A stretch of 64,000 bases of DNA from an uncultured virus (IMG/VR IMGVR_UViG_3300006141_000006) (IMGVR_UViG_3300006141_000006), one strand, 5' to 3'. Numbered from the stretch's first letter, positions 2,225 to 63,251 are shown. Numbers and translations: made by a program. Notes: generated by a model from the letters alone, not told the origin.

Positions 2225-2683
2225 ATGGGTGCAGCAGGCAGACCCCGCAGGTTCAAAAGCGAAAAAGCCCTAAGTGCGGCGTGGGATGAGTACAAGGCCT
2301 GGTGCGGTGACCAAAAGGTGCTGACCCACGATTTCAGCGCGAAAAATTCCCAGTTTGTCTCCGCGGAGCTGAGACGCAGCGTGACCTATACCATCGAGGG
2401 CTTCTGCATGTGGGCGGGGCTGGCCCGGTCCGCGTTCTATGAGACCTGCGGCAAACAGTATCCGGACACCGTCACGCGCATGAAGGAAGAGTGCGAGGTG
2501 GATGCCCGGATGAAGTTTGAACTGGGGATCATCGACACCCGCCTGGCGCCTCTGTGGATGAGCAAGTATGGGTACAGTACCAAGACCGAAGCTGTCCCAA
2601 CACAGGGGCAGGAGGATGACCCCATCACCAAGAGCCTGAAGGAGACGGCAAATGTTTTCGGAAAAGCAAATAAAAATTCTTGA
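2225..2683 (+). CDS. Terminase small subunit (DNA-packaging protein)
   Basis: GRPRRFKS N-terminus, YTIEGFC HTH; precedes TerL. Confidence 0.8.
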   Translation: MGAAGRPRRFKSEKALSAAWDEYKAWCGDQKVLTHDFSAKNSQFVSAELRRSVTYTIEGFCMWAGLARSAFYETCGKQYPDTVTRMKEECEVDARMKFELGIIDTRLAPLWMSKYGYSTKTEAVPTQGQEDDPITKSLKETANVFGKANKNS

Positions 2684-3902
2684 ATGGCCTTACACAGGAA
2701 AGCGGGCGCTGATCTGTGACGGTGCGGTCCGTTCCGGCAAGACCTCCGTCATGTCTCTGTCTTTCATTCTGTGGGCCATGGGGAACTTTGACAAGTGCAG
2801 CTTTGGCCTTTGCGGAAAGACGGTAGGCAGCGCTGAGCGGAACATCATCCAGCCGCTGTTGGGCGTCTCCTACCTTCAGGAGCAGTTCTCGTTGGAGTAC
2901 ACCCGCTCCGGCCATGTGCTGACCGTTACACGGGGACTGCGTTCCAACCAATTTTACGTGTTCGGAGGCCGGGATGAATCGTCCTATATGCTCATCCAGG
3001 GCGTCACCCTGGCGGGGGTCCTGCTGGACGAGGTGGCTTTGATGCCTCGGTCCTTTGTGGAGCAGGCCCTGGCCCGGTGCAGCGTGGCGGGGGCAAAGCT
3101 GTGGTTCAACTGCAACCCGGATGTGCCAGAACACTGGTTTCGAAAGGAGTGGCTGCTGAAACTCCGGGAGAAGGACGCCACCCACCTGCATTTTACCATG
3201 AACGACAATCCAAGCCTGTCGGAGGAGACACGGGCCATGTACCGCGGCATGTATGCCGGAGTGTTCAAGCGCCGGTACATTGATGGTGAGTGGACGGCGG
3301 GGGATGGGCTGATCTACGACATGTTTGACCCTGATGCCAACAGCTACGACGACCTCACTCGCCCCAAGGGCCTGCCCTACATCGCTGCCCGCACCATTGC
3401 CATCGACTACGGGACGGCGAACCCCACCGTGTTCCTGGACATCTACGACGATGGTGAGACGGTCTGGGTGGACCGGGAGTACCGCTGGGACAGCCGTGAT
3501 GTGGATACGACCGGCCTACGACAGAAGACGGATTGGGAATATGCCGACGATTTGGCTGTGTTCATGGGAACAGATCCGCAGTTCCTGTGCCCCGTGATTG
3601 TAGATCCATCCGCCGCCAGCTTCATCGCCGAGCTGCAGCGCCGGGGGATGTACGTCATCCGGGGTGACAACGATGTGCCGAACGGCATCCGGCGGGTCGC
3701 CCAGCTGTTGAGCCGGCGGGTGTTGATGATCCACCGCCAGTGTCAGGGGCTGATCGGCGAACTGCAAAGCTATGTCTGGGACAGTAAGGCGGCCCAAATG
3801 GGAGTGGAAAAGCCAGTGAAGAGCTTGGACCACGGGCCGGATGCCCTGCGCTACTACGTTAACACGGTCCTGCCCAAGTGGCGGTACGGAGAGGAGGGAT
3901 AA
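2652..3902 (+). CDS. terL: Terminase large subunit, PBSX family
   Basis: Walker A GAVRSGKT, Walker B LLDE, nuclease motifs IDYG and DHGPDALRY. Confidence 0.95.
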   Translation: MFSEKQIKILEWPYTGKRALICDGAVRSGKTSVMSLSFILWAMGNFDKCSFGLCGKTVGSAERNIIQPLLGVSYLQEQFSLEYTRSGHVLTVTRGLRSNQFYVFGGRDESSYMLIQGVTLAGVLLDEVALMPRSFVEQALARCSVAGAKLWFNCNPDVPEHWFRKEWLLKLREKDATHLHFTMNDNPSLSEETRAMYRGMYAGVFKRRYIDGEWTAGDGLIYDMFDPDANSYDDLTRPKGLPYIAARTIAIDYGTANPTVFLDIYDDGETVWVDREYRWDSRDVDTTGLRQKTDWEYADDLAVFMGTDPQFLCPVIVDPSAASFIAELQRRGMYVIRGDNDVPNGIRRVAQLLSRRVLMIHRQCQGLIGELQSYVWDSKAAQMGVEKPVKSLDHGPDALRYYVNTVLPKWRYGEEG

Positions 3903-3903
3903 C

Positions 3904-5658
3904 ATGAGTAAGCGGAGAAGAAAGCCTGCCCCGGTGCCGGAGCCGGTCCGGACAGGAGACGCCTTTTCCAACCCGCTTTTCCGGCTGGGGTACGGCTCCC
4001 AGTCCCCCTTGGAGGCCACGGATTACCCTCTGACCAGGATGACGGACAACTATGCCCTGCTTAACTCCCTCTATCGGGACAACTGGGTGGTCCAAAATGT
4101 CGTTGGAATCATACCCGATGACATGACCAAGAAGTGGTTTACCCTGGGCGGAGTTGGTCCGGACCACCTGCGGCAGCTGGAGCAGGCCCAGCGGCGTACG
4201 GCCCTCCGGGACCGAGTGAACACCGGCCTCAAGTGGGGGCGGCTGTACGGCGGTGCGGCGGGGATCCTCCTCATCCGGGGCCAGGAGGACCGGCTGGACC
4301 GCCCCCTGGACCTGGAGCTGGTGCTGCCTGGAACCTTTGCCGGCATCTACATCGTGGACCGCTGGAGCGGCATCACCCCGGAGACGGAGCTGGTGGATGA
4401 CCTGTCGGACCCGGACTTCGGGCTCCCGGCCTATTACCAGGTCAACAGCCCCGAGGGGGGTATCGTCGCCCGGGTCCACCACTCCAGGGTACTCCGGTTC
4501 ACGGGCCGGGAGCTGCCCTACCTGGAGAAGCTGGCGGAGATGTATTGGGGTGAGAGCGAGGTTGAGGCCCTCTATCAGGACGTGGTCAAACATGACAACG
4601 TCTCCGCCAACATGGCGGCCCTCACCTTCCGGGCCAATATTGACACCATGGAGGTCGAGAGCCTGGACCAGCTCTTTTCCGTCTCCTCCGGGGCCCAGCA
4701 GAGGCGATTCTGGAACGTCATGCAGGCCCAGAGCGTGCTGCGCTCCAACTTCGGGATGCAGCTGGTGAACAAGGGCGACCAGATCAACAACACGCAGTAC
4801 ACGTTTACCGGCCTCCAGGAGGTCTATGACAGTATGTGCCACGACCTGTCCGGCGCGTCCCGGATCCCGGTGACCAAGCTCTTCGGACGGTCCCCGGCGG
4901 GGATGAATTCCACTGGGGAGAGCGACCTGCGCAACTACTACGACTACGTGGACACCCTCCGGGAGAATGTGCTGAGGCCTATTCTGGAGCGCATCCTTCC
5001 GGTACTGTGTATGTCGGCCTGGGGCGCGGTGCCAGAGGACCTGGATATCATCTTTCCGCCCCTCTGGATGCCTACGCCCAGGGAGCTGGCGGAGATTGCG
5101 GAGAAAAAGGCCCTTGCCATACGGGATATCTTTCAGGCAGGACTGCTGGCGGTGGACACGGCTCAAAGGGAACTCAAGAAGCTCTCCGACGAGGTCGGAC
5201 TGTTCGGCAGCATCTCCGACGAGGAGATCGAGGCCAACGCCGGCAAGACGTACCAGGATGTGACAAGTTTATACGATTCTCTGGCCGGATTGACTCTGCC
5301 GCCCAGTATCGGCGGGGATGATTTAGAGGAGGACGACGGCCCTTTTGAGCAGGCGACCGGGGACGCGCTGGCGCTGGATTTCAATCCGCACCACGATCCT
5401 GCGTCCGGCCGCTTTACTAGCGGCGGCGGCGGTGGTACAATGGGAAAGACCAAGTACGCGCCATCGCCGCAGAGGAATAAGTCCGGCATCCAGCTCAAGC
5501 CGAAAACATATGCAAGACTGTGCGGCATATTGGGCACGAGATACCCCGGATTGGAAGCCGGGGAGGTCAGAACAATACGGAATGCTCAAAAGCAGTATAC
5601 AGTGAAAGCAGACGGATATGGCGGTATGGAGGTCATAAGTATCCAAAATATCAAATAG
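3904..5658 (+). CDS. Portal protein (DUF1073-like) with acidic linker and ~90-aa basic C-terminal extension
   Basis: Position after TerL; WGRLYGG and PAGMNSTGESDLRNYYD motifs typical of this portal family. Confidence 0.88.
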   Translation: MSKRRRKPAPVPEPVRTGDAFSNPLFRLGYGSQSPLEATDYPLTRMTDNYALLNSLYRDNWVVQNVVGIIPDDMTKKWFTLGGVGPDHLRQLEQAQRRTALRDRVNTGLKWGRLYGGAAGILLIRGQEDRLDRPLDLELVLPGTFAGIYIVDRWSGITPETELVDDLSDPDFGLPAYYQVNSPEGGIVARVHHSRVLRFTGRELPYLEKLAEMYWGESEVEALYQDVVKHDNVSANMAALTFRANIDTMEVESLDQLFSVSSGAQQRRFWNVMQAQSVLRSNFGMQLVNKGDQINNTQYTFTGLQEVYDSMCHDLSGASRIPVTKLFGRSPAGMNSTGESDLRNYYDYVDTLRENVLRPILERILPVLCMSAWGAVPEDLDIIFPPLWMPTPRELAEIAEKKALAIRDIFQAGLLAVDTAQRELKKLSDEVGLFGSISDEEIEANAGKTYQDVTSLYDSLAGLTLPPSIGGDDLEEDDGPFEQATGDALALDFNPHHDPASGRFTSGGGGGTMGKTKYAPSPQRNKSGIQLKPKTYARLCGILGTRYPGLEAGEVRTIRNAQKQYTVKADGYGGMEVISIQNIK

Positions 5659-25355: not shown

Positions 25356-26774
25356 TCAATTCCCGGCCGCTTTTTTCATACCCTTTTCGGGCGGATTTTC
25401 AGCTCCCACAAGGTCATTGAAACGGTCAAAGGTCTGCATGGCTTTAGCCTGGGCGGAGGCTATGGCGTGGGCGTAGATGTTGGCCGTGGTGCTGGCCTGG
25501 GCGTGGCCCAGCTGCCGGGAGACAACCACCAGGGGCACGCCGTCGGCTATCATCAGGGAGGCGTATGTGTGCCGCAGGCTGTGAACCGTCACCTTCGGCA
25601 TACCTGACCGGGCAATAAAGCCGCTGAACCACTGCGTCAGGCTGTCGGGGAACATGGGCGCCCCGGTGTCGGTGGTAAACACCCGCCCGTCCTGATCTTC
25701 CCAGGCGTCACCCAGCTGTTCCCGCCTGGTGTCCTGCCAGGCCCTATACTCCAGCAGTAACATAATAGCGGCGGTAGAGATGGGCAGAGGCCGGGCCGAT
25801 GTAGTAGTTTTCGGTGTGCCCACATAGACCCCCTTGCCGGGCAGATAGTTGGAGGTCTGGCGGATGGTGATGGTATGCTCGTCCAAGTCTACGTCCTGCC
25901 AGCGGAGGCCCAGCAACTCCGCCCGGCGCAGGCCGGAAAGAAGGTCAAAGGTGATGGGTGCCCGCCACTTGACCGGCTCGGCCTGCAACAGCTCCAGGAG
26001 ACGCCGGGCGTCGTCCTCCTCCAGATAGGCCGCCTCATGGCCGCCCAGGCTGGGCTTCTCCGCTGCGTCTGCCGGGTTGATCTGAATATAACCCCATTTG
26101 ACCGCCCGGGAGAGGACGGAGGAAAGGGTACGGTGGTAGGAGATCACGCTGGCCGGGGCCAGCGGTTCCCCGTGGGTGGTGACAGTAAAAGCCCTGGCGG
26201 TCTTCATCCCCACGGCCTGGGCGATAGCGTCAGCGGATTCCCGGTTGATGGGCTTGCCCTCTATGGCCTGCTTGACGGTGGCCCGGCTGACGCCGGCACG
26301 ACCGGCAAAGGCAGTCATGGCCCCGCGCTGAGTGCCGATCCGCTCCCGCAGGTCGATTTTACAAACGGCAGTGGTGCGGTTGCGGACCCCCTTCTCCTGG
26401 AGGTTCTGGTAAAAGCTGTTGATGTGGCCGGTACGGAGGTCACAGAGCCGGATGTGGCCGAGGGCCTGGTTGATGCGCTGAAGGTGCTCCGTGTAGGTGG
26501 CTATGGTTTTCGGTTTGAGGTACAGCTGGGCATACTCGGTCATGTACTTTTCTGCGAAGTCGACAAAGCGCATATTGCCGTTGGAGGTGGCCCCGGTCAA
26601 AACCTTTTCCTCGAACAAGACCGCTTGCCGCTCCAGCTCCTTCTTGATCTGCCGCTCAGACATTCCCGGTTCCGGTACCCACGTCATATATTGACGGAGC
26701 CGCTTGCCGGCATAGTCATAGCCCTGGGAGACGGTAATTTTATAACCTCTCCCCTGTTTTTGAATGGTTGCCAT
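25356..26774 (-). CDS. int: Tyrosine integrase (with internal HTH-like insertion)
   Basis: SGLRRAE (R), TPKT (K), HSLRH, LGH, IYAH catalytic set; ATG after GGAGG at 26774. Confidence 0.95.
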   Translation of the reverse strand: MATIQKQGRGYKITVSQGYDYAGKRLRQYMTWVPEPGMSERQIKKELERQAVLFEEKVLTGATSNGNMRFVDFAEKYMTEYAQLYLKPKTIATYTEHLQRINQALGHIRLCDLRTGHINSFYQNLQEKGVRNRTTAVCKIDLRERIGTQRGAMTAFAGRAGVSRATVKQAIEGKPINRESADAIAQAVGMKTARAFTVTTHGEPLAPASVISYHRTLSSVLSRAVKWGYIQINPADAAEKPSLGGHEAAYLEEDDARRLLELLQAEPVKWRAPITFDLLSGLRRAELLGLRWQDVDLDEHTITIRQTSNYLPGKGVYVGTPKTTTSARPLPISTAAIMLLLEYRAWQDTRREQLGDAWEDQDGRVFTTDTGAPMFPDSLTQWFSGFIARSGMPKVTVHSLRHTYASLMIADGVPLVVVSRQLGHAQASTTANIYAHAIASAQAKAMQTFDRFNDLVGAENPPEKGMKKAAGN

Positions 26775-26775
26775 C

Positions 26776-26885
26776 TTGCTTTTTCCTCCTGCATTTGATA
26801 TGATAGGAGGGCAGTTAGGCCGTCGCAAAGTCTACTGCCCTCTTTGCCCTCCTCGGTGTTGGTAGCACCGGGGAGGGTTTTTTTC
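26776..26885 (+). ncRNA. Putative antisense RNA in the integrase leader (promoter plus terminator)
   Basis: TTGCTT(26776)-17-TATGAT(26799); hairpin CCCTCCTCGGTG...CACCGGGGAGGG followed by T-run to 26884. Confidence 0.5.
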
Positions 26886-27860: not shown

Positions 27861-28040
27861 AAAACTAATGAAACTAATATTTTTGGCGTTGACTTTCTAA
27901 TAAAACTAATATATACTTTGCCATGTTGATACAGACAACACAAAACCAGGCCCCCCAAAATGCGGGCGTTTCTTATGTTTGTTGGCTCTTACATGATAAA
28001 CGGTTTTTTGCTCTGTGTCAATAGAAATATTAGTTTTCTT
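27861..28040. promoter_or_regulatory. Genetic switch: face-to-face promoters with AAACTAAT operator-like repeats
   Basis: Rightward TTGACT(27889)-17-TATACT(27912); leftward TTGACA(28021-28016)-17-TATCAT(27998-27993); AAACTAAT x3 plus inverted ATTAGTTT. Confidence 0.75.
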
Positions 28041-28068
28041 AGAAAATGGCATTAGAAAGGAGGACATC

Positions 28069-28293
28069 ATGCCTATCTTCGAAATCAACAGATTTCGCAA
28101 GGCCCGGCTCTCTGCAAAAATGACCCAGGCCCAAGCAGCGGAGAAGATCGGGGTTGACCCCATCACCATTATTCAGTGGGAAAAGGGTTCCAACACGCCG
28201 ACAAAGCGGAATCTGGAGAAAGCGGCAACGGTGTATGGTTGCAGCACAAGCGACCTGCTGGAGCCTGATGCCGTTTCCGTTGGTTCGGGCTGA
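28069..28293 (+). CDS. Cro-like XRE HTH regulator
   Basis: MTQAQAAEKIGV..ITIIQWEKG; divergent from repressor; AAGGAGG RBS. Confidence 0.87.
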   Translation: MPIFEINRFRKARLSAKMTQAQAAEKIGVDPITIIQWEKGSNTPTKRNLEKAATVYGCSTSDLLEPDAVSVGSG

Positions 28294-28311: not shown

Positions 28312-28360
28312 TGCACCTTGAAAATTGAATCTCAAAAAATACGGTATTGCCGCCAATACC
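28312..28360 (+). promoter_or_regulatory. boxA-like motif plus small hairpin (nut-like site) after cro
   Basis: TGCACCTTGAAAATTGAAT, then GGTATTG-CCGC-CAATACC; same core as 57881. Confidence 0.5.
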
Positions 28361-44816: not shown

Positions 44817-45701
44817 ATGGACAAGGAGCAAACTGCGATTGCCCGCCTCCGGGAAGCGTCCTCTATGTCATTAAAGGTCTACAAGCAACCACTGGTGGTA
44901 ACGACATCCGGCGGGAAAGACAGCAGCGTGTGTGTTGCGCTGGCCGAGCGGGCCGGTATCCCATTTGAGGTCATGCACAATCACACAACGGCGGACGCGC
45001 CGGAGACGGTCTATTTCGTCCGGGATGAAATGCGGCGCTTAGAGTTTAAAGGAATTAAGTGTGATGTAAACTATCCGGTCTACAAAGGCGTGAGAACGTC
45101 AATGTGGCAGTTGATACCTCAAAAGTTAATGCCGCCGACACGGCTTGTTCGGTATTGCTGTGCAATCCTGAAAGAGCGCGGCGGGGCAGGGCGTTTCATT
45201 ACAACGGGTGTACGGTGGGAAGAATCGCCAAGCAGAAGGGAAAACAGAGGGATTTATGAAGCCGGGAGAAAAGTGGTCCTAAACAATGATAACGACGACC
45301 GCCGCCGCCTATTTGAAAATTGCCGATTGCAGGCAAAAAGGGTATGCAATCCGATTATCGAATGGACGGACGCGGATGTTTGGGACTACATCGAAAGTGA
45401 ACGCCTGACACTAAATCCACTGTATCAATGCGGATTTTCCCGCGTCGGATGTATCGGATGCCCCATGGCAGGAACGAAGGGCCGTCAAAAAGAGTTTGCA
45501 CGTTATCCTAAATACCAGTACAACTATATCCTTGCTTTTGACCGGATGCTGAAAGAACGGGAGCGAAAAGGAAAGATGCAAGGAAACTGGAATATGGGAA
45601 CGACCGGAGAAGATGTATTTCATTGGTGGATGGAGGACGGCGTGCTGCCTGGACAAATCGACATAGAAGATTTAATGGGCGAAATGGAGGACGAAGCATG
45701 A
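44817..45701 (+). CDS. PAPS-reductase-family (PP-loop) protein
   Basis: SGGKDS, RYCC..LKE, GVRWEES..R, RVGCIGCP. Confidence 0.88.
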   Translation: MDKEQTAIARLREASSMSLKVYKQPLVVTTSGGKDSSVCVALAERAGIPFEVMHNHTTADAPETVYFVRDEMRRLEFKGIKCDVNYPVYKGVRTSMWQLIPQKLMPPTRLVRYCCAILKERGGAGRFITTGVRWEESPSRRENRGIYEAGRKVVLNNDNDDRRRLFENCRLQAKRVCNPIIEWTDADVWDYIESERLTLNPLYQCGFSRVGCIGCPMAGTKGRQKEFARYPKYQYNYILAFDRMLKERERKGKMQGNWNMGTTGEDVFHWWMEDGVLPGQIDIEDLMGEMEDEA

Positions 45702-46459
45702 ACACAATCTACAAACCGAAGGGCGCGGCGGCGGAGTACGGCGACTATGCCGTGAACATCTACACCGGATGCCCCCACCGCTGCTACTACTGTTTCGCGC
45801 CCAAGGTCCTCCACCGGGACCGGGAAGCGTTTCACTCCTGCGTGGAGCCGCGCAAGGGAATTGTGGAGGAACTGCGGCGGAAGCTGGAGCGGGAGAAAAT
45901 CACTGGGAAGCTGGTCCACCTGTGCTTCACCTGTGACCCGTATCCCACCGGCTGCGACACGACCACCACGCGGGAGGTCATTCAGACGTTGAAGGAGTTC
46001 GGGAACCACGTCCAGATTCTCACCAAAGGGAGCGGGATTTGCGACTTTGACCTGCTGGACGGCGGGGATTGGTACGGCGTGACCATATCCTGCGGGTGGC
46101 CTATGGAAGATGCGGCGGAGCCCGGAGCGGTCAGCCTGGAAAGCCGCCTGTATGACCTGGAGGAAGCGAAGCGCAGGGGGATTAACACATGGGTATCGTT
46201 CGAGCCGGTCCTTGATCCGGAAGCCGTACTGGCGTGTATTTATGGATGCGCGTACTTCATCGACAAAGTAAAAGTCGGGAAGCTGAACTACCACCCGTCG
46301 GACATCGACTGGGGACAGTTTGGCCGCAACGCCGAAATGATGTGCCGGGAGCTGGGTCTGGACTACTACATCAAGGACAGCCTGCGGGCGGAAATGGACA
46401 AGCCCCCAACGCGCCGCGTGAAATCCGCCTGCTCCAGCGGTAGTGCAATAACCGCTTGA
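45698..46459 (+). CDS. Radical SAM protein (spore-photoproduct-lyase-like)
   Basis: N.YTGCPHRCYYC (CxxxCxxC), DPY, ILTK, SFEP. Confidence 0.85.
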   Translation: MNTIYKPKGAAAEYGDYAVNIYTGCPHRCYYCFAPKVLHRDREAFHSCVEPRKGIVEELRRKLEREKITGKLVHLCFTCDPYPTGCDTTTTREVIQTLKEFGNHVQILTKGSGICDFDLLDGGDWYGVTISCGWPMEDAAEPGAVSLESRLYDLEEAKRRGINTWVSFEPVLDPEAVLACIYGCAYFIDKVKVGKLNYHPSDIDWGQFGRNAEMMCRELGLDYYIKDSLRAEMDKPPTRRVKSACSSGSAITA

Positions 46460-50356: not shown

Positions 50357-51937
50357 ATGCCGCGCTACCCCTTTACGCCGGAAATCCTGGACGCGCTCCC
50401 GGAGGAACTGGCCGAACTCTTTCGCGATCTGGAACGAAAGCTGCTGCAAGAAATCTGTTCCAGACTGAACGCGTCGGGACAGCTCAACGAGGTAACGGTG
50501 CAGAGCATTCGCGCCCTGCGCGCTCACGGCATTGACCTGAAAGAAATACGGCGGGCGATTGACGAGGCCACCGGCATTGGAGAGGCCCGGCTAAACGATC
50601 TTCTAAACGATGTTGTAGCCCGCAACCAGGCATATTATATGGAAATGATCGACTTGGCAAAGGTGACAGAGCCGGAAACACTCCTAAGCCATGAGGATAT
50701 TTGGGCAATCCAGGAACAGACCCGCGGAGAGCTGCGAAATCTGACGCGTTCTATGGGCTTTCTGGTGACGCAGGGCCGTCATAGGGTGATGCTGCCGCCT
50801 GCAAAAGCCTACCAGTGGGCTTTGGACAGCGCAGAGCTTCAGATTATGTCCGGGGCGATCAGTTACAATCAAGCCATTGCCGGCGCAGTACGGCATCTGG
50901 CGGAAAGCGGGTTCAAAACCGTCCGCTATGAGAGCGGGCACGTGGACAGCCTGGATGTCGCCGTCAGAAGGGCCGTTATGACGGGTGTGAATCAGATCAA
51001 CCAGAAATACCGCGAGCAATCCATGGACTACCTTGGTACAGATTTGGTGGAGGTTACGGCCCACCTGGGAGCGCGGAACATCGACGGCCCCAGGGGCTGG
51101 GAGAACCATGCCGCATGGCAGGGGAAGGTATACCATTGGGAAGCAAAATCCCGGGCATCCAAAGGGAAGTACCCAAGTTTTGAGGACGCCTGTGGTGTGG
51201 GAAGCGTTACCGGAATCGGAGGGGCCAACTGCCGCCACTCCTATTGGCCTTTCATCGAGGGCGTATCCGAGCGCACCTATACCGACGCGGAATTAGAAGC
51301 CATGAAGCCTGAGAACCGGCCCAAAATCCTGTTTGAGGGCCGGGAATATGACGATTACCAGGCCACGCAAAAACAACGGCAGATTGAGCGCGCCATCCGC
51401 AAGCAAAAACGGCTCAAAATGGCCTTTGAAGACGCCGGGCTGACCAATGAAGCGCAGTCCTCCGGTATCCGCCTGCGCCGCCTGAATGAAAAATACCGCC
51501 AGTTCAGCAGAGCGGCCGGACTGCCAAAGCAAAGAGAGCGGATGAAGGTTTCCTATGTGGATGAGGCTTCAAAAACGAGAGCATCGGCGTTGAGAATCCG
51601 AAGAATACGGGAAGCAATTCGTCGGGGCGATTATCCGCTCACCATCAACCCAGAAAAGCAAGCGCGGCACATGGCGGCAACTGCAATACCGGGGCGCAGC
51701 GTTATCACGATCCCACAGGAGGAATTGCAGAGGATCATCAATAAACAGGCCGGAAGTGGTCATATTGAACTTACACGCGGACTTGAATGGAAGAACAAGG
51801 AAATTGTTGATGTTGGGAAAGAAATTGGCTATACAGTAAACAAAAAAGGTGATATAATACCAGCGAGAAGTATTGCCATTCATTACAGCAAAACCGGCGT
51901 TCATGCTGTCCCAAATTCAAGGAGGTTGGAAAATTGA
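50357..51937 (+). CDS. Minor capsid (MuF-related) protein with C-terminal Ntox50-like toxin domain
   Basis: H.GAR, H..WQGKVY, GANCRH; tail INPEKQARH...GRS.IT...IHYSKTGVHAVP. Confidence 0.82.
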   Translation: MPRYPFTPEILDALPEELAELFRDLERKLLQEICSRLNASGQLNEVTVQSIRALRAHGIDLKEIRRAIDEATGIGEARLNDLLNDVVARNQAYYMEMIDLAKVTEPETLLSHEDIWAIQEQTRGELRNLTRSMGFLVTQGRHRVMLPPAKAYQWALDSAELQIMSGAISYNQAIAGAVRHLAESGFKTVRYESGHVDSLDVAVRRAVMTGVNQINQKYREQSMDYLGTDLVEVTAHLGARNIDGPRGWENHAAWQGKVYHWEAKSRASKGKYPSFEDACGVGSVTGIGGANCRHSYWPFIEGVSERTYTDAELEAMKPENRPKILFEGREYDDYQATQKQRQIERAIRKQKRLKMAFEDAGLTNEAQSSGIRLRRLNEKYRQFSRAAGLPKQRERMKVSYVDEASKTRASALRIRRIREAIRRGDYPLTINPEKQARHMAATAIPGRSVITIPQEELQRIINKQAGSGHIELTRGLEWKNKEIVDVGKEIGYTVNKKGDIIPARSIAIHYSKTGVHAVPNSRRLEN

Positions 51938-56892: not shown

Positions 56893-57321
56893 ATGGATAG
56901 AATTCGCGTCAACACAGGCGAAAAGAAAATCGAAGTGAATGACAACGGCGACTTTATTACCATCAATTTCAGCGACCACGATTTCCCATCCCGTTTCTTT
57001 GCAATGCTTGATCATGTAGAGCTTTTGGCAAAGGAAGCGGAACCAAAAGAAAAAGAAATCCGCGCCAATTTTGCGGACGACAATAATGGCCTTATTCGCG
57101 CCTTATCCGACCTGGACAAGGATATCCACCGGTCTATTATGGCGGAAGTTGATTCCCTGTTCGGAGACGGGACCTGCCAGAAAGTATTTGGGGATATTAT
57201 CCCTGGAATCGAATTGTATGACGACTTTTTCAATCAGCTTCTTCCGTATATCCAGCAGTTTGGAGAAGAACGGGCAAAGCGTATGAGCAAATACCGCGCC
57301 AGCCGAACCGGCAATGTATAA
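56893..57321 (+). CDS. Tail assembly chaperone
   Basis: D.LFG.GT..KVFG motif; synteny. Confidence 0.75.
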   Translation: MDRIRVNTGEKKIEVNDNGDFITINFSDHDFPSRFFAMLDHVELLAKEAEPKEKEIRANFADDNNGLIRALSDLDKDIHRSIMAEVDSLFGDGTCQKVFGDIIPGIELYDDFFNQLLPYIQQFGEERAKRMSKYRASRTGNV

Positions 57322-57862
57322 CGCCATTTTAGACCGTCTGCCGGAGGATTACAACGGCTGGTTAATTCGCACAGATTACCGAATTGGCGTGCAAATCCAG
57401 CTCTGCCTCTCAGATTTGGACTTGTCTCCCGGTGAAAAAACGGCGGCGGCATTGTCGCTGCTGTATGGTAAAGGGATCCCAGATTTGGAAACGGCTCTGG
57501 AAGGGCTTTCCTGGTTTATGTCCTGCGGACACCCGGAGGAAGCCGCCGGAGATGACGGGGGCCCGGAAATCTATTCGTTTGAATACGATTCCGCCCGCAT
57601 TGTATCGGCATTCTGGAAAACGTTTGGATTGGATATCAGCCGCGAGAAACTGCATTGGTTTCAATTCGTCCCAATGATTGGTGACTTGGCAGACACGGCT
57701 TTTACAAGTGTAATTGATATCCGGACAACCGAACTAGCGGAAATTGATAAAAAGAAGCGTTCGGAATTTATCCGCATGAAAAAAAGGTTTGCTCTGCCAG
57801 AATTGTATACGCCGGAACAAGAATCCGCAATCAACGATTTTATGGACCGGCTGAAACAATAA
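57314..57862 (+). CDS. Gp15-like tail assembly protein
   Basis: I.TDYR, FE.D...I.SAF...G.D....LHW.QF. Confidence 0.82.
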   Translation: MYNAILDRLPEDYNGWLIRTDYRIGVQIQLCLSDLDLSPGEKTAAALSLLYGKGIPDLETALEGLSWFMSCGHPEEAAGDDGGPEIYSFEYDSARIVSAFWKTFGLDISREKLHWFQFVPMIGDLADTAFTSVIDIRTTELAEIDKKKRSEFIRMKKRFALPELYTPEQESAINDFMDRLKQ

Positions 57863-57880
57863 AACCGCGTAATGCGGCAT

Positions 57881-57920
57881 TGCACCTTGACAACTTCATA
57901 GAGATAGCGGAAATTTTGAT
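57881..57920 (+). promoter_or_regulatory. boxA-like motif fused to left arm of 30-nt inverted repeat (candidate antiterminator)
   Basis: TGCACCTTGACAAC overlapping CAACTTCATAGAGATAGCGGAAATTTTGAT (57891-57920), complementary to 59974-60003. Confidence 0.75.
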
Positions 57921-57926
57921 AATGAA

Positions 57927-57953
57927 ACCGCCCACTTAAAAATTGTGGGCGGT
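57927..57953 (-). terminator. Hairpin terminator for the minus-strand moron ORF
   Basis: ACCGCCCAC...GTGGGCGGT 9-bp stem. Confidence 0.7.
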
Positions 57954-57960
57954 GTATGTA

Positions 57961-58209
57961 TTACGGCAAGAACCAATTATGACCGCACGATTGGCAAAGG
58001 CACATCTTTTTCATAATTGTTTTCGTTTTTTCCTCGCCCTTGGCTTTTTTCCACACAAGATTTGACATTCCGAACGTCATCATAGCAGTTGTAGTTCTCA
58101 TGGAATTGTTAATATGTCCACCAAGCCCAATGCCTGTCTTCTTGGTCTTACTGCCAACTTCCTCCATGGAAATCGTCACATTTGTGCTTCTGCATTTGGG
58201 ACAAGTCAT
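57961..58209 (-). CDS. Moron: split Zn-ribbon protein with central hydrophobic segment
   Basis: MTCPKC...CQSCG; AAGGAGG RBS; own promoter TGGACA-17-TATTTT near 58235-58262. Confidence 0.7.
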   Translation of the reverse strand: MTCPKCRSTNVTISMEEVGSKTKKTGIGLGGHINNSMRTTTAMMTFGMSNLVWKKAKGEEKTKTIMKKMCLCQSCGHNWFLP

Positions 58210-58292
58210 TTCAAGCGCCTCCTTTCTTTTTTTAAAATACCACAAAATCCTCCGCGTGTCCACAAAAACAGAAAATTTTTCTAAATTCCCTC

Positions 58293-58334
58293 TTGACAAA
58301 CGTATCCACAATATTGTATTATAAATGTGGATAC
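58293..58334 (+). promoter_or_regulatory. Moron promoter with GTATCCACA/TGTGGATAC inverted operator
   Basis: TTGACA(58293)-18-TATTAT(58317); half-sites 58302-58310 and 58326-58334. Confidence 0.72.
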
Positions 58335-58353
58335 AAAAGAAGGAGGTGAAATT

Positions 58354-58524
58354 GTGCCCCCAAAAGGTAGGCCGACGGACGACCCTAAAACGCTAAGCAC
58401 TCGGATTAGACTGTCAGAAGAAGACATTCAGCGGCTTGAATTTTGTGTGCAAGCTACCGGCATGAAAAAGTCTGAAATTATCCGGCTTGGTATTAAGGAA
58501 GTCTACGAAAGGCTAAAAAAGTGA
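58354..58524 (+). CDS. Ribbon-helix-helix (Arc/CopG-like) autoregulator
   Basis: KGRPTDDPK...RIRLSEE...SEIIR.GI; AAGGAGGTG RBS. Confidence 0.8.
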   Translation: MPPKGRPTDDPKTLSTRIRLSEEDIQRLEFCVQATGMKKSEIIRLGIKEVYERLKK

Positions 58525-58621
58525 AGTAGCCCGACACCGTGGAAAGTTCCGGACTACTTCATTGACCCTCACCCGGAGGCGAGGCTAAATCTATTATAGC
58601 CCGCCTCCTGGTGAAAATCAA
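58516..58621 (-). ncRNA. Putative ~70-nt antisense RNA (sar-like) with its promoter
   Basis: Minus-strand TTGATT(58621-58616)-17-TATAAT(58598-58593); hairpin GAAGTAG...CTACTTC with T-run on the minus strand. Confidence 0.55.
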
Positions 58622-58631
58622 GGAGGAATTT

Positions 58632-58835
58632 ATGAGCGAAATTGAGAAGATGAAAAAGTACATCGAGCGGACGAAGCTCGACAAGTACAGGTATTGCCTT
58701 AGTATGGCAGAGGGGTTTTCTCTGGCGCATATGGCGCGTGAGACGAACGACTTCCCTTTTGAAGTGGTAACCCTTGCTTTCAACTATGGCAAGGCCAAAG
58801 GCTACCGGGCGGCGAAAGCGGAGGCGCGGAAATGA
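58632..58835 (+). CDS. Small hypothetical protein
   Basis: AAGGAGG RBS; AF.YG.AKGYRA motif. Confidence 0.72.
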   Translation: MSEIEKMKKYIERTKLDKYRYCLSMAEGFSLAHMARETNDFPFEVVTLAFNYGKAKGYRAAKAEARK

Positions 58836-59035
58836 AAAATCTCATTATCCCCTCCGGGAATCTGGAAAACATCACGGGACGGATGGTTTACCTCCATGCT
58901 CTTCTTGAAACCGTCTGCATGGCAATGAGTGATGATAAGATGTCCGATTCCCTTTCCGGTGTCATTGACCTTCTGCGGTCTATCCAGAATGACTTTGAAG
59001 CTGATATCGCCGCCGCTAAGGAGGTGACCACGTGA
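58832..59035 (+). CDS. Small hypothetical protein
   Basis: ATGA coupling, GGAGG RBS. Confidence 0.65.
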   Translation: MKNLIIPSGNLENITGRMVYLHALLETVCMAMSDDKMSDSLSGVIDLLRSIQNDFEADIAAAKEVTT

Positions 59036-59793
59036 ACGAACTCCAAGTCTTCAACTACGAGTCCAACGAGGTCCGTACCGTCATGATTGATGGTGAACCC
59101 TGGTTCGTCTTAAAGGACGTGTGTCAGGTGTTGGGGATTTCTAAGTACCGTGATGTCGCGTCTCGTTTGGACGATGATGAAAGGGGGCTGTTCAAGATGG
59201 ACACCCTTGGTGGGCTTCAGGAAATGACCATTATCAATGAGTCTGGCCTGTACTCCGTCATTCTCCGTTCGGACAAGCCGGAAGCAAAGCCGTTCCGCAA
59301 GTGGGTGACTTCCAAGGTCCTGCCCAGTATCCGGAAGACCGGCGAGTATAGCACCAGCAAGACCATACAGGACACCACGAAAGCATCCCTTGCTGAGGCT
59401 AGGCTGTTGAACAGTCAGGCACGGGAGCGGAACAGCCGGGTAAAGGAAGCGTCTATGTGGCTTGAGATTGCAAAAGTTGCGTCCGTACCGTCTTACTTTG
59501 CGATTTGCGCCCACTATGCAAGCACCGCACTGGCCGGGAAGGAAGTGCTTCCCTTGCCGGAGACTGGCGGACGTACTTATACCGCAAAGGAAGTCGGAGA
59601 AATTCTTGGCGGTATCAGCGCGAACAAGATTGGCAGGCTGGCTAACAAAAACGACTTGAAAACGCCGGAGTATGGTGTGGAGGTCTGGGATAAGTCCCCT
59701 CACAGCGGAAAACAGATTCCCTCTTGGCGTTACAATGAAAAGGGTGTTGAACGCCTGCGGCAGATTGTGGAGGCCCCGAATGAAACTGTTTGA
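59032..59793 (+). CDS. BRO-N family antirepressor
   Basis: VRTV..DGEPWFV.KDVC, INESGLY.VI.RS.KPEAK.FRKWVT..VLPSIRKTG.Y. Confidence 0.9.
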   Translation: MNELQVFNYESNEVRTVMIDGEPWFVLKDVCQVLGISKYRDVASRLDDDERGLFKMDTLGGLQEMTIINESGLYSVILRSDKPEAKPFRKWVTSKVLPSIRKTGEYSTSKTIQDTTKASLAEARLLNSQARERNSRVKEASMWLEIAKVASVPSYFAICAHYASTALAGKEVLPLPETGGRTYTAKEVGEILGGISANKIGRLANKNDLKTPEYGVEVWDKSPHSGKQIPSWRYNEKGVERLRQIVEAPNETV

Positions 59794-59941
59794 ACTTACG
59801 TATGACGGGGAACGGCTGACCATCCACCGGGAAGCAGAAGAACGCTTGACTGGTGAACAAAAGTACAGCCTTATTCAGACTGCCATTATTGCCGCAGCCG
59901 TTTGTGTCGTGGTGGCAGTAGTCTTCTCCGTGTTCCGGTAG
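59780..59941 (+). CDS. Small membrane protein
   Basis: GGAGG RBS; C-terminal TM helix. Confidence 0.6.
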   Translation: MKLFELTYDGERLTIHREAEERLTGEQKYSLIQTAIIAAAVCVVVAVVFSVFR

Positions 59942-59973
59942 AAGCAAAGTGAATTAAAAATCAAACTGAATAC

Positions 59974-60030
59974 ATCAAAGTTCCCGCTATCTCTATGAAG
60001 TTGAGACGGCGGGAACTTTTGGTTTCTAAT
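59974..60030 (+). terminator. Moron terminator whose 5' arm and loop are the right arm of the inverted repeat
   Basis: AAAGTTCCCGC-TA-TCTC-loop-GAGA-CG-GCGGGAACTTT then T-rich tract. Confidence 0.78.
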
Positions 60031-60053
60031 TTTTCAAGAAAGGCGGTGATATT

Positions 60054-63000
60054 TTGGCGGCTGGTTATGATGGCTCTATCAGAATCAAAGCATTATTGAA
60101 TCATGACCAATTCGACAGAGGCATTCAGGCCATGAATGATTCCGCAGATGACCTCAAAGACACGCTTGTAGAAGTTGCAAATGTTGTTGGAATTGCTTTT
60201 GGAATTGCAGCTATTGTAAATTTTGGGAAGGAAAGTGTCAATGCTGCATCTGCCTTAAGTAGTGCATTACTGGGATTACAAAGTATTGTTGAAGGGCAAG
60301 GTCAAAGTTTTAGAAAGGCTAATGCCTTTGTAGACGAATATATTTCTGATGGGCTTGTACCTCTGACAGATGCCGTAAAAGCATATAAAAATCTTGCCGC
60401 TAGAGGATATGATGACGAGCAAATCAAAAAAGTAATGATTGCTTTGAAAGATGCGGCGGCGTTTGGAAGACAATCTTCTTATTCTTTGGGTGAAGCGGTA
60501 TCCACGGCTGCGGAAGGCTTAAAAAACGAAAATTCTATTCTTGTTGATAATGCGGGTGTTACCAAAAACGTTGCAAAAATGTGGGACGATTATGCAAAAA
60601 GTATCGGAACCACGGCAAACAATTTGACGCAGGAGCAAAAGATTCAAGCCGAAGTCAACGGAATATTGGAAGAAACGCGATTTCAAGCCGGTGATGCGGC
60701 AAAACTGGTAAATACATATTCCGGCCAAGTGGCTATGCTGGGATTCAACTTCCAGCAGCTTAAAGTCCAGATCGGAAACGCCATTATGCCGGTTGTGCAG
60801 GCCGTTCTGCCGGGTATCAACGCAATTATCGCCGCCCTGCTGAAGCTGGCGAAGGTCTTTGCCAAGGTGACGGCGCTGCTGTTTGGAAAAGCAAATGCCG
60901 GAACCGTCGGGCAAGTTTCTGCCAATGAGGAAATTACATCCAGCGGACTTGCTGCGGCGGATGCAACGGACAAACTGGCAGACTCCACCGCAGGAGCCGG
61001 AAGCGCGTCTAAAAAAGCCGCAAAGGATATGAAAGGTATTCTTGCTGGGTTTGATGAACTGAACATCCTGGCAGATAAAGCGTCCGGCAGCTTGAGCGGT
61101 GCGGCTGGCGGTATTGGGGCGGGCGAAATTGACGCCGATATTCCAGAATTTGATATAGGCAATGATGCCGCAGAAGATGCAGAGGAGGCATTCAAATCCC
61201 TCGGGGAGATTTTCAAGGATACCCTAGGCTCTATGCTGACAGGAATTACCCGGCTGAAAGAGGTCTTCCTTGACTTTGCAGAGAGTTTCAATAATTTTAA
61301 CCAAACGCTCTACGATGCATTCAAATTCGACGGCGTATTAGAACGTGTGGAATGGCTGGGGCGGCGGTTGGCTGATGCATTCAACGCCCTCGTAAACGCC
61401 ATTGACTGGCAACTATGGGGGCAACGCCTGGGAGCTGGGCTGAATCTGGGCTTGCAGTTCCTGACGGAATTTATTTACACCTTCGACTGGATAAACCTCG
61501 GGAAGAAGCTGGCGGAGTTTATCAACGGCTTGGTTTACGAGGTCGACTGGTATGACTTTGGCCGGCTGCTGTGGGCCAAGTTCAAGATCGGCCTTGAAAC
61601 CTTTGCGGGGTTCCTCACAGGGTTGGATATGCCAGCTCTGGCGAAAGCAGCCAGCAGCATCATTATGGGATTCTTCGATGAAATGAAGAATACGATTGCT
61701 AAAATTGACTGGGCGGAAATTGGCCGTCAAGTTGCCCGTTTTTTATCCAATATTGATTGGATGGGTATGCTGGCTTCTGCTTTGGGCGCGATCAAAGCAG
61801 CCGTTCTGGCCGGATTTGATTTCCTGGTGGGCGTGATTGAGCAAGGAAGCCCTGGGCTTCTTGCCGCTGTTTCCCTTGTTGCCGGAGCAATGGGTGTGAA
61901 ATTTGCCACGGATGTTGTACCCAAAATAGTGAATATCGCCAATGCTTTCCAATCTTTTTTCAAAAAGATAAAAGATATTTCCGTGCTTTTAAAGTATGAA
62001 ATGGCTAATCTTTCCGGCGCAATCAACGCGGTATTCGGGCCTGGGTCTACGCTTGCCGGAATTGCAATGGTTGTTGGAGGAGCAGTCCTTGCTTTTACGA
62101 ATTTCTTCTCCATGCTCCAAAACGGATTCAGCTTGGCGAACGAAGTGCTCATGCTTCTGGGCATTGCCATTACGGCTTTGGGCGCAATCATTCTTGGCGT
62201 ATCTACGCCGGTTGCCGCAGCAATCGCTGGAATCGTAGCTGTGGCGGGTACGCTTGCGGCGGTGTTCCCAGACGTGGTAGCAGCGGTAATTACAAGCTGG
62301 GATACCTTGCGCCAAACTTTTGTGGATTCCTTACAACCGATTGTTGATGTTGTCAGTTCCATCCAAACATCTATTCAAGAATGGTTTGATCAGATGCGCG
62401 CCGGATGGGAAAACTACATTCAACCAGTGCTTCAGAATATTATTGATAAATTTAACGAGGTAGTACAACAGCACATTGCCCCGCTGATCGAGCAAATCCT
62501 GAAGCTCATTGGTAATATTTCAGAAGTTGTAAAAATTCTTTGGGAAACTATCTTATCTCCTTTTGTATCGTGGCTTATTGGGGTTATGGGACCCAAAATC
62601 GGTGCAACATTGGAATTTATTGGTAGTGTTTTTCTTACTACCATTGGCGTTATAAGCGACCTGATTACGGGTCTCCTGCAAACATTGAATGGCCTTATCA
62701 AATTTTTAACTGGTGTTTTCACAGGCGATTGGGAAAAGGCTTTCAACGGAATACGAAATACTGTCGACGGTGCAATAACATTTGTTTCTGGCATAATCGA
62801 CGGCTTCGTTGAAAATCTAAAAAGTGCAGTTAATTGGTTGAAAAATTTCCTAGGATTATCGAATGAAACCGCAAGAGTAAAATCACCAAGCGGATACAAC
62901 ACAATTCATAAGTATTCACAAGTTTATACCATTGGACGGGCAGAAAATGTTCTTAAATCTGCACCCCTGCCCCGTCTTGCCAACGGCGCAGTAATCCCAC

Positions 63001-63251
63001 CCAATCAGCAATTTGCTGCGATTTTGGGTGATCAGCGAAAAGGGTACAACATCGAAGCTCCTGCGGACCTTATTTACCAAATGGTCGCAAAAGGTATTCG
63101 GGATTCCGGCGCGGCCTTGAACGGCGGCGGAAACCGCCCCATTACCGTTATTCTGCAAGTAGACCGCCGGGAGCTTGGCCGCGTTGTTTATGAAGTGAAC
63201 ACCCAGGAAACACAGCGCGTCGGCGTTCGGCTGGCAAGGGGGACAACATGA
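60054..63251 (+). CDS. Tape measure protein (phage B)
   Basis: DGSIRI N-terminus, DW/IDW helical repeats, PRLANGAVIP C-terminal motif. Confidence 0.9.
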   Translation: MAAGYDGSIRIKALLNHDQFDRGIQAMNDSADDLKDTLVEVANVVGIAFGIAAIVNFGKESVNAASALSSALLGLQSIVEGQGQSFRKANAFVDEYISDGLVPLTDAVKAYKNLAARGYDDEQIKKVMIALKDAAAFGRQSSYSLGEAVSTAAEGLKNENSILVDNAGVTKNVAKMWDDYAKSIGTTANNLTQEQKIQAEVNGILEETRFQAGDAAKLVNTYSGQVAMLGFNFQQLKVQIGNAIMPVVQAVLPGINAIIAALLKLAKVFAKVTALLFGKANAGTVGQVSANEEITSSGLAAADATDKLADSTAGAGSASKKAAKDMKGILAGFDELNILADKASGSLSGAAGGIGAGEIDADIPEFDIGNDAAEDAEEAFKSLGEIFKDTLGSMLTGITRLKEVFLDFAESFNNFNQTLYDAFKFDGVLERVEWLGRRLADAFNALVNAIDWQLWGQRLGAGLNLGLQFLTEFIYTFDWINLGKKLAEFINGLVYEVDWYDFGRLLWAKFKIGLETFAGFLTGLDMPALAKAASSIIMGFFDEMKNTIAKIDWAEIGRQVARFLSNIDWMGMLASALGAIKAAVLAGFDFLVGVIEQGSPGLLAAVSLVAGAMGVKFATDVVPKIVNIANAFQSFFKKIKDISVLLKYEMANLSGAINAVFGPGSTLAGIAMVVGGAVLAFTNFFSMLQNGFSLANEVLMLLGIAITALGAIILGVSTPVAAAIAGIVAVAGTLAAVFPDVVAAVITSWDTLRQTFVDSLQPIVDVVSSIQTSIQEWFDQMRAGWENYIQPVLQNIIDKFNEVVQQHIAPLIEQILKLIGNISEVVKILWETILSPFVSWLIGVMGPKIGATLEFIGSVFLTTIGVISDLITGLLQTLNGLIKFLTGVFTGDWEKAFNGIRNTVDGAITFVSGIIDGFVENLKSAVNWLKNFLGLSNETARVKSPSGYNTIHKYSQVYTIGRAENVLKSAPLPRLANGAVIPPNQQFAAILGDQRKGYNIEAPADLIYQMVAKGIRDSGAALNGGGNRPITVILQVDRRELGRVVYEVNTQETQRVGVRLARGTT

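Follow-up and report, generated by a model that had tools for sequence, protein, structure and literature searches.

A host-type boxA, a long inverted repeat and a predicted terminator frame an accessory-gene slot in phage tail operons: a candidate long-range antitermination device

The trp leader, the T-box and PyrR leaders are classical terminator/antiterminator attenuators. In phages lambda and P22, read-through is provided by a phage-wide late antiterminator (Q and gp23, respectively). For rRNA (rrn) operons, a published model has the leader strand, held by a tether, brought to its complement downstream. The leader-trailer helix is reported to be essential (PMC10250234). Here we analyze a locus in 64,000 nt of DNA from an uncultured virus (IMG/VR IMGVR_UViG_3300006141_000006); this whole stretch is referred to as the window. 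At this locus an accessory cassette sits in a tail operon, bracketed by the arms of an inverted repeat. The left arm begins inside a boxA-like word and the right arm is half of a predicted intrinsic terminator. We put it slightly short of an even chance that the left arm, tethered through boxA, disarms the terminator on late transcripts while transcripts from the promoter of the cassette terminate, a reading drawn from the sequence and its comparison with relatives. Each part is known by itself: the boxA signal, the intrinsic terminator, pairing of one strand with alternative partners, and the moron (an autonomous promoter-gene-terminator unit). Their combination, a kilobase-range antiterminator beside a host-matched boxA, framing a swappable slot in the late operons of Firmicute phages, was not described among the papers listed in the literature searches, at the level of titles and abstract openings.

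The cassette lies between a gp15-family gene and the tape-measure protein (TMP) gene. We call its two ends the frame and the DNA between them the cargo. The arms are termed U1 and U2, and the 3' strand of the terminator stem U3. The elements of the frame are as follows.

57864..57878, + strand: small hairpin CCGC gtaat GCGG, 2-3 nt before boxA, placed like a boxB and matching the order of the host rrn leader
57881..57894, + strand: host-type boxA TGCACCTTGACAAC, the sole exact match in the window
57891..57920, + strand: left arm (U1), the complement of the terminator 5' arm, its loop and 3 nt upstream
59974..60003, + strand: right arm (U2), the inverted-repeat partner of U1
59977..60035, + strand: predicted intrinsic terminator, stem 59977-59993 / 60003-60019 (U2:U3), then a T-run

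An earlier note on this DNA had described a 30-nt inverted repeat that brackets a cassette of ~2.1 kb between gp15 and TMP, and a repeat search returned the same arms, complementary at 28 of 30 positions (93%) and spaced by 2053 nt. Only these two sites were found in the 64-kb window when a 30-mer was searched with up to three mismatches, and none of 100 dinucleotide shuffles gave a match. The pair table bears out the claim that one of the two differences is a G-U pair in + strand RNA (left T, right G); the other is an A·C mismatch. U1 starts with the last 4 nt of boxA and is largely unpaired in the local fold, where it lies between two local hairpins. U2, as the same note had proposed, is the 5' arm plus loop of the hairpin that ends the cassette. 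This hairpin has a predicted free energy of –28.4 kcal/mol (z = –6.51, with 0/200 shuffles equally good) and is followed directly by the U-rich UUUUGGUUUCUAAUUUUUC / UUUUGGUUUCU, so that by sequence it has the stable GC-containing stem-loop and U-tract of an intrinsic terminator. It was absent from a simple terminator scan because its 9-nt loop exceeds the range allowed there (3-8 nt). Read on the – strand, the small hairpin before boxA also resembles a small terminator.

The layout recalls attenuators in having three elements, the middle of which can pair with either neighbor, one pairing being the terminator (compare 2:3 versus 3:4 in the trp leader). Unlike in attenuators, the antiterminator strand lies 0.5-5.7 kb upstream rather than tens of nucleotides away, and the decision would follow the start of the transcript, not a ligand, tRNA or ribosome. 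In the reading that we favor, late transcripts from gp15 would carry boxA and U1. NusB/NusE and their partners would bind boxA and keep both it and the neighboring U1 where the RNA leaves the polymerase, as has been described for rrn leaders. When U2 emerges 0.5-5.7 kb later, U1 would pair with it before U3 is made, no terminator would form, and the polymerase would read on into TMP and the later tail genes. Transcripts from the cargo promoter (58293) have neither boxA nor U1; they would stop at U2:U3, leaving the tail genes silent in the lysogen. Nus binding, tethering, co-transcriptional pairing and read-through are thus the steps that we infer, and the frame would copy, by analogy, the leader/trailer logic of rRNA operons.

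The predicted terminator stands in the path of tail-gene transcription, and relatives that lack a cargo have no such terminator. The ribosome-binding site (RBS) of TMP starts ~20 nt past the T-run and, judged by sequence, the gap between terminator and TMP start is too small for a promoter. The tail genes therefore rely on read-through for their expression. Among 17 open reading frames (ORFs), many of which lack any match, none was recognized as a phage-wide late antiterminator.

To place the boxA-like word, we searched the genomes behind three prophage loci. The Flintibacter muris genome has a single exact match, TGCACCTTGAAAAC, situated between the 16S (255-1786) and 23S (2320-5161) genes, and an inverted near-copy lies just 3' of 23S. 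In Pseudoflavonifractor sp. 524-17, the 16S-23S spacer carries TGTACCTTGAAAAC, and here too 23S is followed on its 3' side by an inverted partner. Apart from the spacer, that genome has just two exact copies of TGTACCTTGAAAAC, one in each of its prophage frames, and these show the same T variant as the host. The window word TGCACCTTGACAAC agrees with the Flintibacter spacer at 13 of 14 positions, the hosts compared being those of related prophages. Order is shared as well. The rrn leader of Flintibacter muris runs promoter, hairpin CCGC tgatga GCGG, TGCACCTTGTAAAT, and the window parallels it with hairpin CCGC gtaat GCGG and then TGCACCTTGACAAC. Judged by these matches, the boxA-like word is the hosts' rrn boxA, in rrn order; the earlier note had likened it to Firmicute boxA motifs, and the host comparison sustains this. 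Across frames, the word lies 8-20 nt past the upstream stop codon, in an untranslated stretch on the late-gene strand. A boxB-like hairpin before boxA is clear in the window and in L001, L168, L069 and L026-type loci, and none is obvious in L210, L006 and L005; boxB is reported to be dispensable in rrn. The NusB gene is present in both cultured hosts.

Rho was not found above cut-off in either cultured host (PF07497, 0/2; TIGR00767, 0/2; draft genomes G006 and G007, hosts of L188 and L233), and the cultured Oscillospiraceae hosts may lack it. An anti-Rho role for boxA is unlikely, given no Rho above cut-off in two cultured hosts (draft genomes). In the rrn operons of both hosts (L284, 2148-2170 / 5217-5239; L285), the spacer boxA and the next 9 nt are complementary to the 23S 3' flank, which makes boxA a component of the leader-trailer stem of 23S. 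A boxA-like match on a small contig of the L210 metagenome-assembled genome (MAG) is not rRNA. Five further MAGs have no 23S gene and add no host/phage boxA pair, and the host MAGs of L193, L207, L241 and L164 contain no rRNA operon against which boxA variants could be matched.

Like the rrn leader and spacer (boxB-boxA-boxC; NusA/B/E/G, SuhB, S4), the slot presents, after a hairpin in some of the frames, boxA and then the 5' strand of a helix with its 3' strand kilobases downstream, and its boxA sequence is shared with the hosts' own rrn boxA. Unlike rrn, it encloses protein-coding accessory genes in a tail operon instead of rRNA, its downstream strand also forms one half of a predicted intrinsic terminator, and its arm is not rrn-derived: in the hosts, TGAACAGTG follows boxA.

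The same layout would also suit a processing stem, already named as an alternative in the earlier note. Here boxA alone, through a Nus-modified polymerase, would give read-through, and the U1:U2 helix would be cut by RNase III, which would excise the cargo RNA and leave the late mRNA as an upstream and a downstream piece, each stable on its own. The arrangement of boxA plus the next 9 nt paired with the 23S 3' flank in the hosts speaks for this explanation, as does an arm duplex of 24-35 bp of near-perfect double-stranded RNA (–33 to –51 kcal/mol); a review links boxA complexes to the formation of RNase III target helices. It leaves unexplained, however, why the right arm never occurs as a free strand but in every case makes up the 5' half of a terminator, and why U1 covers the loop and 3 nt upstream in addition, which is exactly the RNA made before U3. 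We regard cleavage as an unlikely explanation of the arms.

A second boxA-type word, TGCACCTTGAAAAT (28312-28325), lies in the same phage, 18 nt past the stop of a cro-like helix-turn-helix gene (28015-28293), a placement that we take to be nutR-like. It is followed by a 7-bp hairpin (28343-28360) and then an RBS. In two of five other complete records, too, a second boxA-like word occurs on the same strand, ~10 kb upstream. A published study documents a role of boxA beyond rRNA, at E. coli suhB and other genes (PMC5725501). Like a lambda nut site (boxA and boxB with N), the slot would, as proposed here, use boxA and host Nus factors for read-through. Unlike nut, its hairpin, in frames that have one, precedes boxA, as in rrn, and it is a site in the late operon, tied to a long-range complement. 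No N-like protein was recognized among the ORFs of the window phage.

We next asked how the frame behaves in relatives. Searching viral contigs for gp15 yielded 14 loci, four of which represent the same phage (97.7-99.8% identity), among them L001, in which the right half of the cargo is different. In L005, L006 and L007, the tail genes have ~65-70% DNA identity, yet boxA and left arm at one end, and right arm and hairpin at the other, are nearly unchanged; between these near-identical ends the cargos are quite different from that of the window. Motif scans returned many more arm pairs, all convergent, in viral contigs and in bacterial genomes (Pseudoflavonifractor sp. 524-17 with two prophages, Flintibacter muris, and Oscillospiraceae, Clostridiales and Firmicutes MAGs). 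De-duplication left 28 arm pairs. Their arms occur in 20 distinct combinations, and the cargos, at least 14 of them different, measure 0.45-5.7 kb. All 28 share one order: upstream stop, 8-20 nt (often with a hairpin), boxA-like word, left arm, cargo, right arm, T-run, RBS and next gene. In every frame the right arm is the 5' half of a 14-17-bp hairpin and boxA stands at one side only. The ends are short, about 45 nt and 60 nt, and the cargos diverge sharply at the inner arm edges. The cargos are of kinds typical of lysogeny or accessory functions and encode Zn-ribbon membrane proteins, lipoproteins, ribbon-helix-helix (RHH) plus Ant/Rha regulators, toxin-antitoxin-like pairs and small membrane proteins.

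Most groups have the slot directly before the TMP gene, or one small ORF before it, and at least nine of these have a gp15-family gene upstream. The frame also occurs before a major-tail gene (L041) and among genes of unknown type (L210), giving at least three gene contexts; it is therefore portable. In all 13 cargo groups in which the downstream gene can be named, that gene is on the same strand and boxA is on the upstream side. The stretch is contained in 20 public mouse-gut runs, and in the four examined as contigs it breaks or branches at the arms into other cargos and flanks. (One mouse-gut run shows an unrelated 79-nt skip.) Where no cargo is present (L011, L013 and L014), the gp15 stop, RBS and TMP start fall within ~30 bp, and the gp15-TMP junction has no arm, no boxA-like word and no terminator hairpin, so the frame arrived with the cargo. 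In L008 and L009 the terminator is absent, and boxA and U1 have decayed with it. In detail, these loci (L008, 5700-5997; L009) have a 2-nt insertion in boxA, about five changes in the left arm, no right arm or terminator, and a tiny leftward ORF before TMP.

Variant boxA words (TGTACCTTGATAAC, TGAACATTGAGAAT and one degenerate) were seen in L193, L207, L241 and L164, and L193 and L207 have a shorter arm complementarity, ~18 bp. Of 65 single matches in the genome collection, about half are expected by chance (own arithmetic; ~35 in 596 Gb). Single 18-mer matches such as those in L228, L232, L189, L170, L213 and L231 were set aside as chance, being in unrelated taxa or inside coding genes and having no boxA or hairpin.

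These comparisons bear on the idea that the left arm is a relic, that is, the functionless half of a duplicated terminator kept by recent spread, with read-through supplied by an unrecognized late antiterminator. By eye, U1 resembles U3 at 14 of 17 nt, recency could account for an invariant core in the arms, and many phage ORFs are unannotated. Set against this, divergence has affected boxA variants, U3 and the inner arm ends but not U1; loss of the terminator goes together with decay of U1; U1 keeps Watson-Crick pairs to U2 where U3 has G·U; and the frame is present in unrelated backbones. We consider a relic improbable.

To compare the two pairings of U2, we co-folded 75-nt left and 85-nt right pieces for the 20 arm combinations, with shuffled left pieces as control. 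In the minimum-free-energy structures, U2 pairs with U1 rather than with U3 in 19 of the 20, which answers the proposal of the earlier note that the arms be co-folded against the terminator. By computation, therefore, the frame has a mutually exclusive pairing that sequesters the terminator 5' arm, as in an attenuator. The terminator hairpins of the distinct instances range from –16 to –30 kcal/mol, all with a T-run, and most U2:U3 stems contain two G·U pairs that exist only in + strand RNA, where the stem is stronger. The U1:U2 duplex spans 24-35 bp at –33 to –51 kcal/mol. U1 is Watson-Crick to the U2 5' arm except for one conserved A·C. Its complementarity further takes in the loop and the 3 nt that precede the stem, and U1 thus spans all that is transcribed before U3.

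Covariation gave a thinner result. U1 and U2 are complementary at ~28 consecutive positions in at least 16 of the 20 arm combinations, with double-sided changes at 3 peripheral positions only (TA/CG, GC/AT and TA/AT). The alignment of relatives with different cargo, as suggested earlier, thus showed arms, boxA and terminator to be conserved, and covariation to be confined to those three positions. As judged from these alignments, covariation neither proves nor excludes an RNA helix.

An invariant core is also what one would see at a protein-binding DNA site, and we considered whether the arms are terminal repeats or recombination sites for cargo inversion or exchange, with boxA and terminator as mere add-ons. 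The L026 group is the most direct evidence on this. The cargo there consists of a single AT-rich gene for a lipoprotein, which has a promoter and a terminator of its own. A 1047-bp segment between the arms (L026, 5995-7041) occurs in both orientations among 19 contigs (11 versus 8) whose flanks are at least 97% identical, and the breakpoints overlap inside the core. The sharp divergence of cargos at the inner arm edges, the occurrence of the frame in at least three gene contexts and the branching of mouse-gut contigs at the arms into other cargos point the same way. The flank tree requires at least three changes of orientation. In the cargo tree, on the other hand, all 11 same-orientation copies form one clade, with a single change (support 100/97), and these copies share an allele-specific arm substitution; one old inversion is therefore enough, and the three changes on the flank tree follow from exchange of the allele between backbones. 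The L026 data are thus accounted for by a single old event, the product of which has since passed from one backbone to another through recombination.

Recombinase searches agree. Resolvase/invertase (PF00239) was found in 0/5 near-complete phage records, tyrosine integrase (PF00589) in 3/5, as terminal integrases only, and no recombinase is encoded in the cargos. On these searches and the one-change cargo tree, we reject an active invertase or DNA switch. Window-type cargos keep a constant internal orientation and gene order, boxA is upstream in 13/13 groups, and no inverted joint was present in the contigs of the four mouse-gut runs. A transposon or mobile insertion cassette was likewise rejected: arm ends show no target duplication, genomes carry at most two pairs, all in prophages, there is no matching transposase, boxA is always upstream, and the host genomes contain no multi-copy element with these ends. 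Like Hin/Gin/Cin systems and gut invertons, the locus has inverted repeats flanking a segment seen in both orientations among relatives. Unlike them, it has no adjacent or phage-borne invertase, shows a single inversion on the cargo tree, and has no evident switch-like consequence of inversion, because the frame is symmetric. The frame survives inversion for the same reason, its arms being symmetric. We conclude that inversion is a rare by-product of inverted repeats and not the purpose of the arms, and we think DNA-level sites quite unlikely as the explanation of the frame.

Several observations weigh against boxA-tethered antitermination. The foremost is the 15-nt core, which is invariant in both arms. 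When 12 core bases were left free in a scan, 22 of 24 matches had the standard core and 2 had single uncompensated changes. Such a core fits fixed-sequence recognition or recent spread better than selection for pairing alone, and it is the main unexplained feature of the frame. G·U (+ strand) and A·C mismatches are balanced by column and one A·C is conserved in 12/20 combinations, so there is no strand signal. Four of the 20 co-folds gain –3 to –8 kcal/mol, within the range of the shuffled control, and in the L210 co-fold the terminator wins. The inverted L026-type allele introduces four A·C mismatches, which weaken the duplex from about –46 to –33 kcal/mol, and it persists in 11/19 contigs. 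The earlier note had listed both orientations as evidence that would tell against RNA pairing; both do occur in the L026 group, in form a contrary finding, although in substance they trace to one old inversion, with no invertase found. The host boxA match comes from two host-phage pairs, and the two prophages of the Pseudoflavonifractor host may share their boxA variant via recombination. One metatranscriptome, as contigs, contains scattered pieces of the stretch only and is uninformative on transcription, ends and read-through. E. coli rrn antitermination acts mainly on Rho-dependent terminators. Finally, that pairing over kilobases outruns a local 17-bp hairpin is speculative. With the thin covariation and the lack of strand asymmetry between wobbles and mismatches, the interpretation offered earlier is partly supported, and boxA-tethered antitermination is still the leading hypothesis.

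If this hypothesis is true, RNA pairing over kilobases, tethered by protein, can make a terminator depend on where the transcript began. Outside rRNA, the complex for rrn antitermination would serve as a chaperone of long-range mRNA structure, in hosts seemingly without Rho. It would also explain how temperate phages of gut Clostridia keep autonomous lysogeny genes amid essential tail operons without polar effects. It is possible, but somewhat doubtful, that the frame serves as a portable safe slot, in which the host rRNA antitermination complex works as an RNA-delivery machine and the terminator reads the promoter of origin. The frame is short and modular and is present in cultured Flintibacter muris DSM 110149 (locus L233, with a cargo of 446 bp), which makes it directly testable; it might also be used to insulate genes in synthetic operons. 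Should boxA alone be active, a host-matched boxA in late and early operons of Firmicute phages extends Nus-dependent antitermination beyond the lambdoid phages.

The cargo and the genes on either side of it are listed below; 2.05 kb of cargo lies between the arms, and the gp15-family gene is the last late gene before the slot.

57314..57862, + strand: gp15-family tail gene (PF06854, 2.4e-26; phrog_706), stop at 57860-57862
57927..57953, strand not assigned: hairpin at the 3' end of the leftward cargo gene, predicted from fold and sequence to act as its terminator
57961..58311, – strand: small Zn-ribbon ORF, leftward cargo (from the ORF list; weak Zn_ribbon match; CPKC motif in the translation)
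58293..58322, + strand: cassette promoter TTGACA-18-TATTAT, 11/12 matches
within 58293..58334, + strand: 9-bp inverted repeat GTATCCACA / TGTGGATAC, overlapping the promoter, operator-like in appearance as read from sequence
58327..58524, + strand: RHH, Arc-like repressor (phrog_876 transcriptional repressor, 1.4e-13)
58611..59035, + strand: two small ORFs (58611-58835 and 58832-59035) with no assigned function
59032..59793, + strand: antirepressor, BRO-N, Ant family (PF02498, 8.1e-28; phrog_130, 1.4e-63)
59780..59941, + strand: small ORF with a hydrophobic C-terminal stretch, the last cargo gene, likely a membrane protein
60054..63251, + strand: TMP gene (phrog_1535, 1.4e-66)

The promoter at 58293 had been assigned to the moron in the earlier note and was recovered here. 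The Zn-ribbon ORF is 116 aa as listed; its true start is probably internal. The ORF at 58611-58835 recurs in other cargos, and homologues of the last ORF (59780..59941) occupy the same cargo end in L041, L006, L005 and L069. With an RHH repressor gene followed by ant, and a promoter overlapped by a 9-bp inverted repeat, the cargo has the gene arrangement of P22 immI and is predicted to be an immI-like antirepressor moron. Like phage morons and P22 immI (arc-ant-mnt in the late operon), it is an autonomous promoter-gene-terminator unit inside a late operon, with an RHH repressor and Ant, whose terminator late transcription must pass. Unlike lambda and P22, the slot appears to bring its own cis-acting device. 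A blastn search of the reference phage collection found no relative of the locus, only short matches to the Ant gene covering ≤5% of the query.

The window consists of two tandem prophages, and the slot belongs to the second. The first (1-25000) is a contractile-tail phage with terminase, portal, sheath, tube, baseplate and lysis genes. The second (25356-64000) is of siphovirus type and begins at a tyrosine integrase (25356-26828), besides which no recombinase was found up to the window end. A minor capsid protein 2 (Phage_min_cap2) at 50357-51937 carries a C-terminal Ntox50 toxin domain, a layout that is presumably that of a MuF-like polymorphic toxin. Just upstream of the small terminase gene, PAPS-reductase-like and radical-SAM genes lie side by side (44817-46459), and these may be a DNA or nucleotide modification pair.

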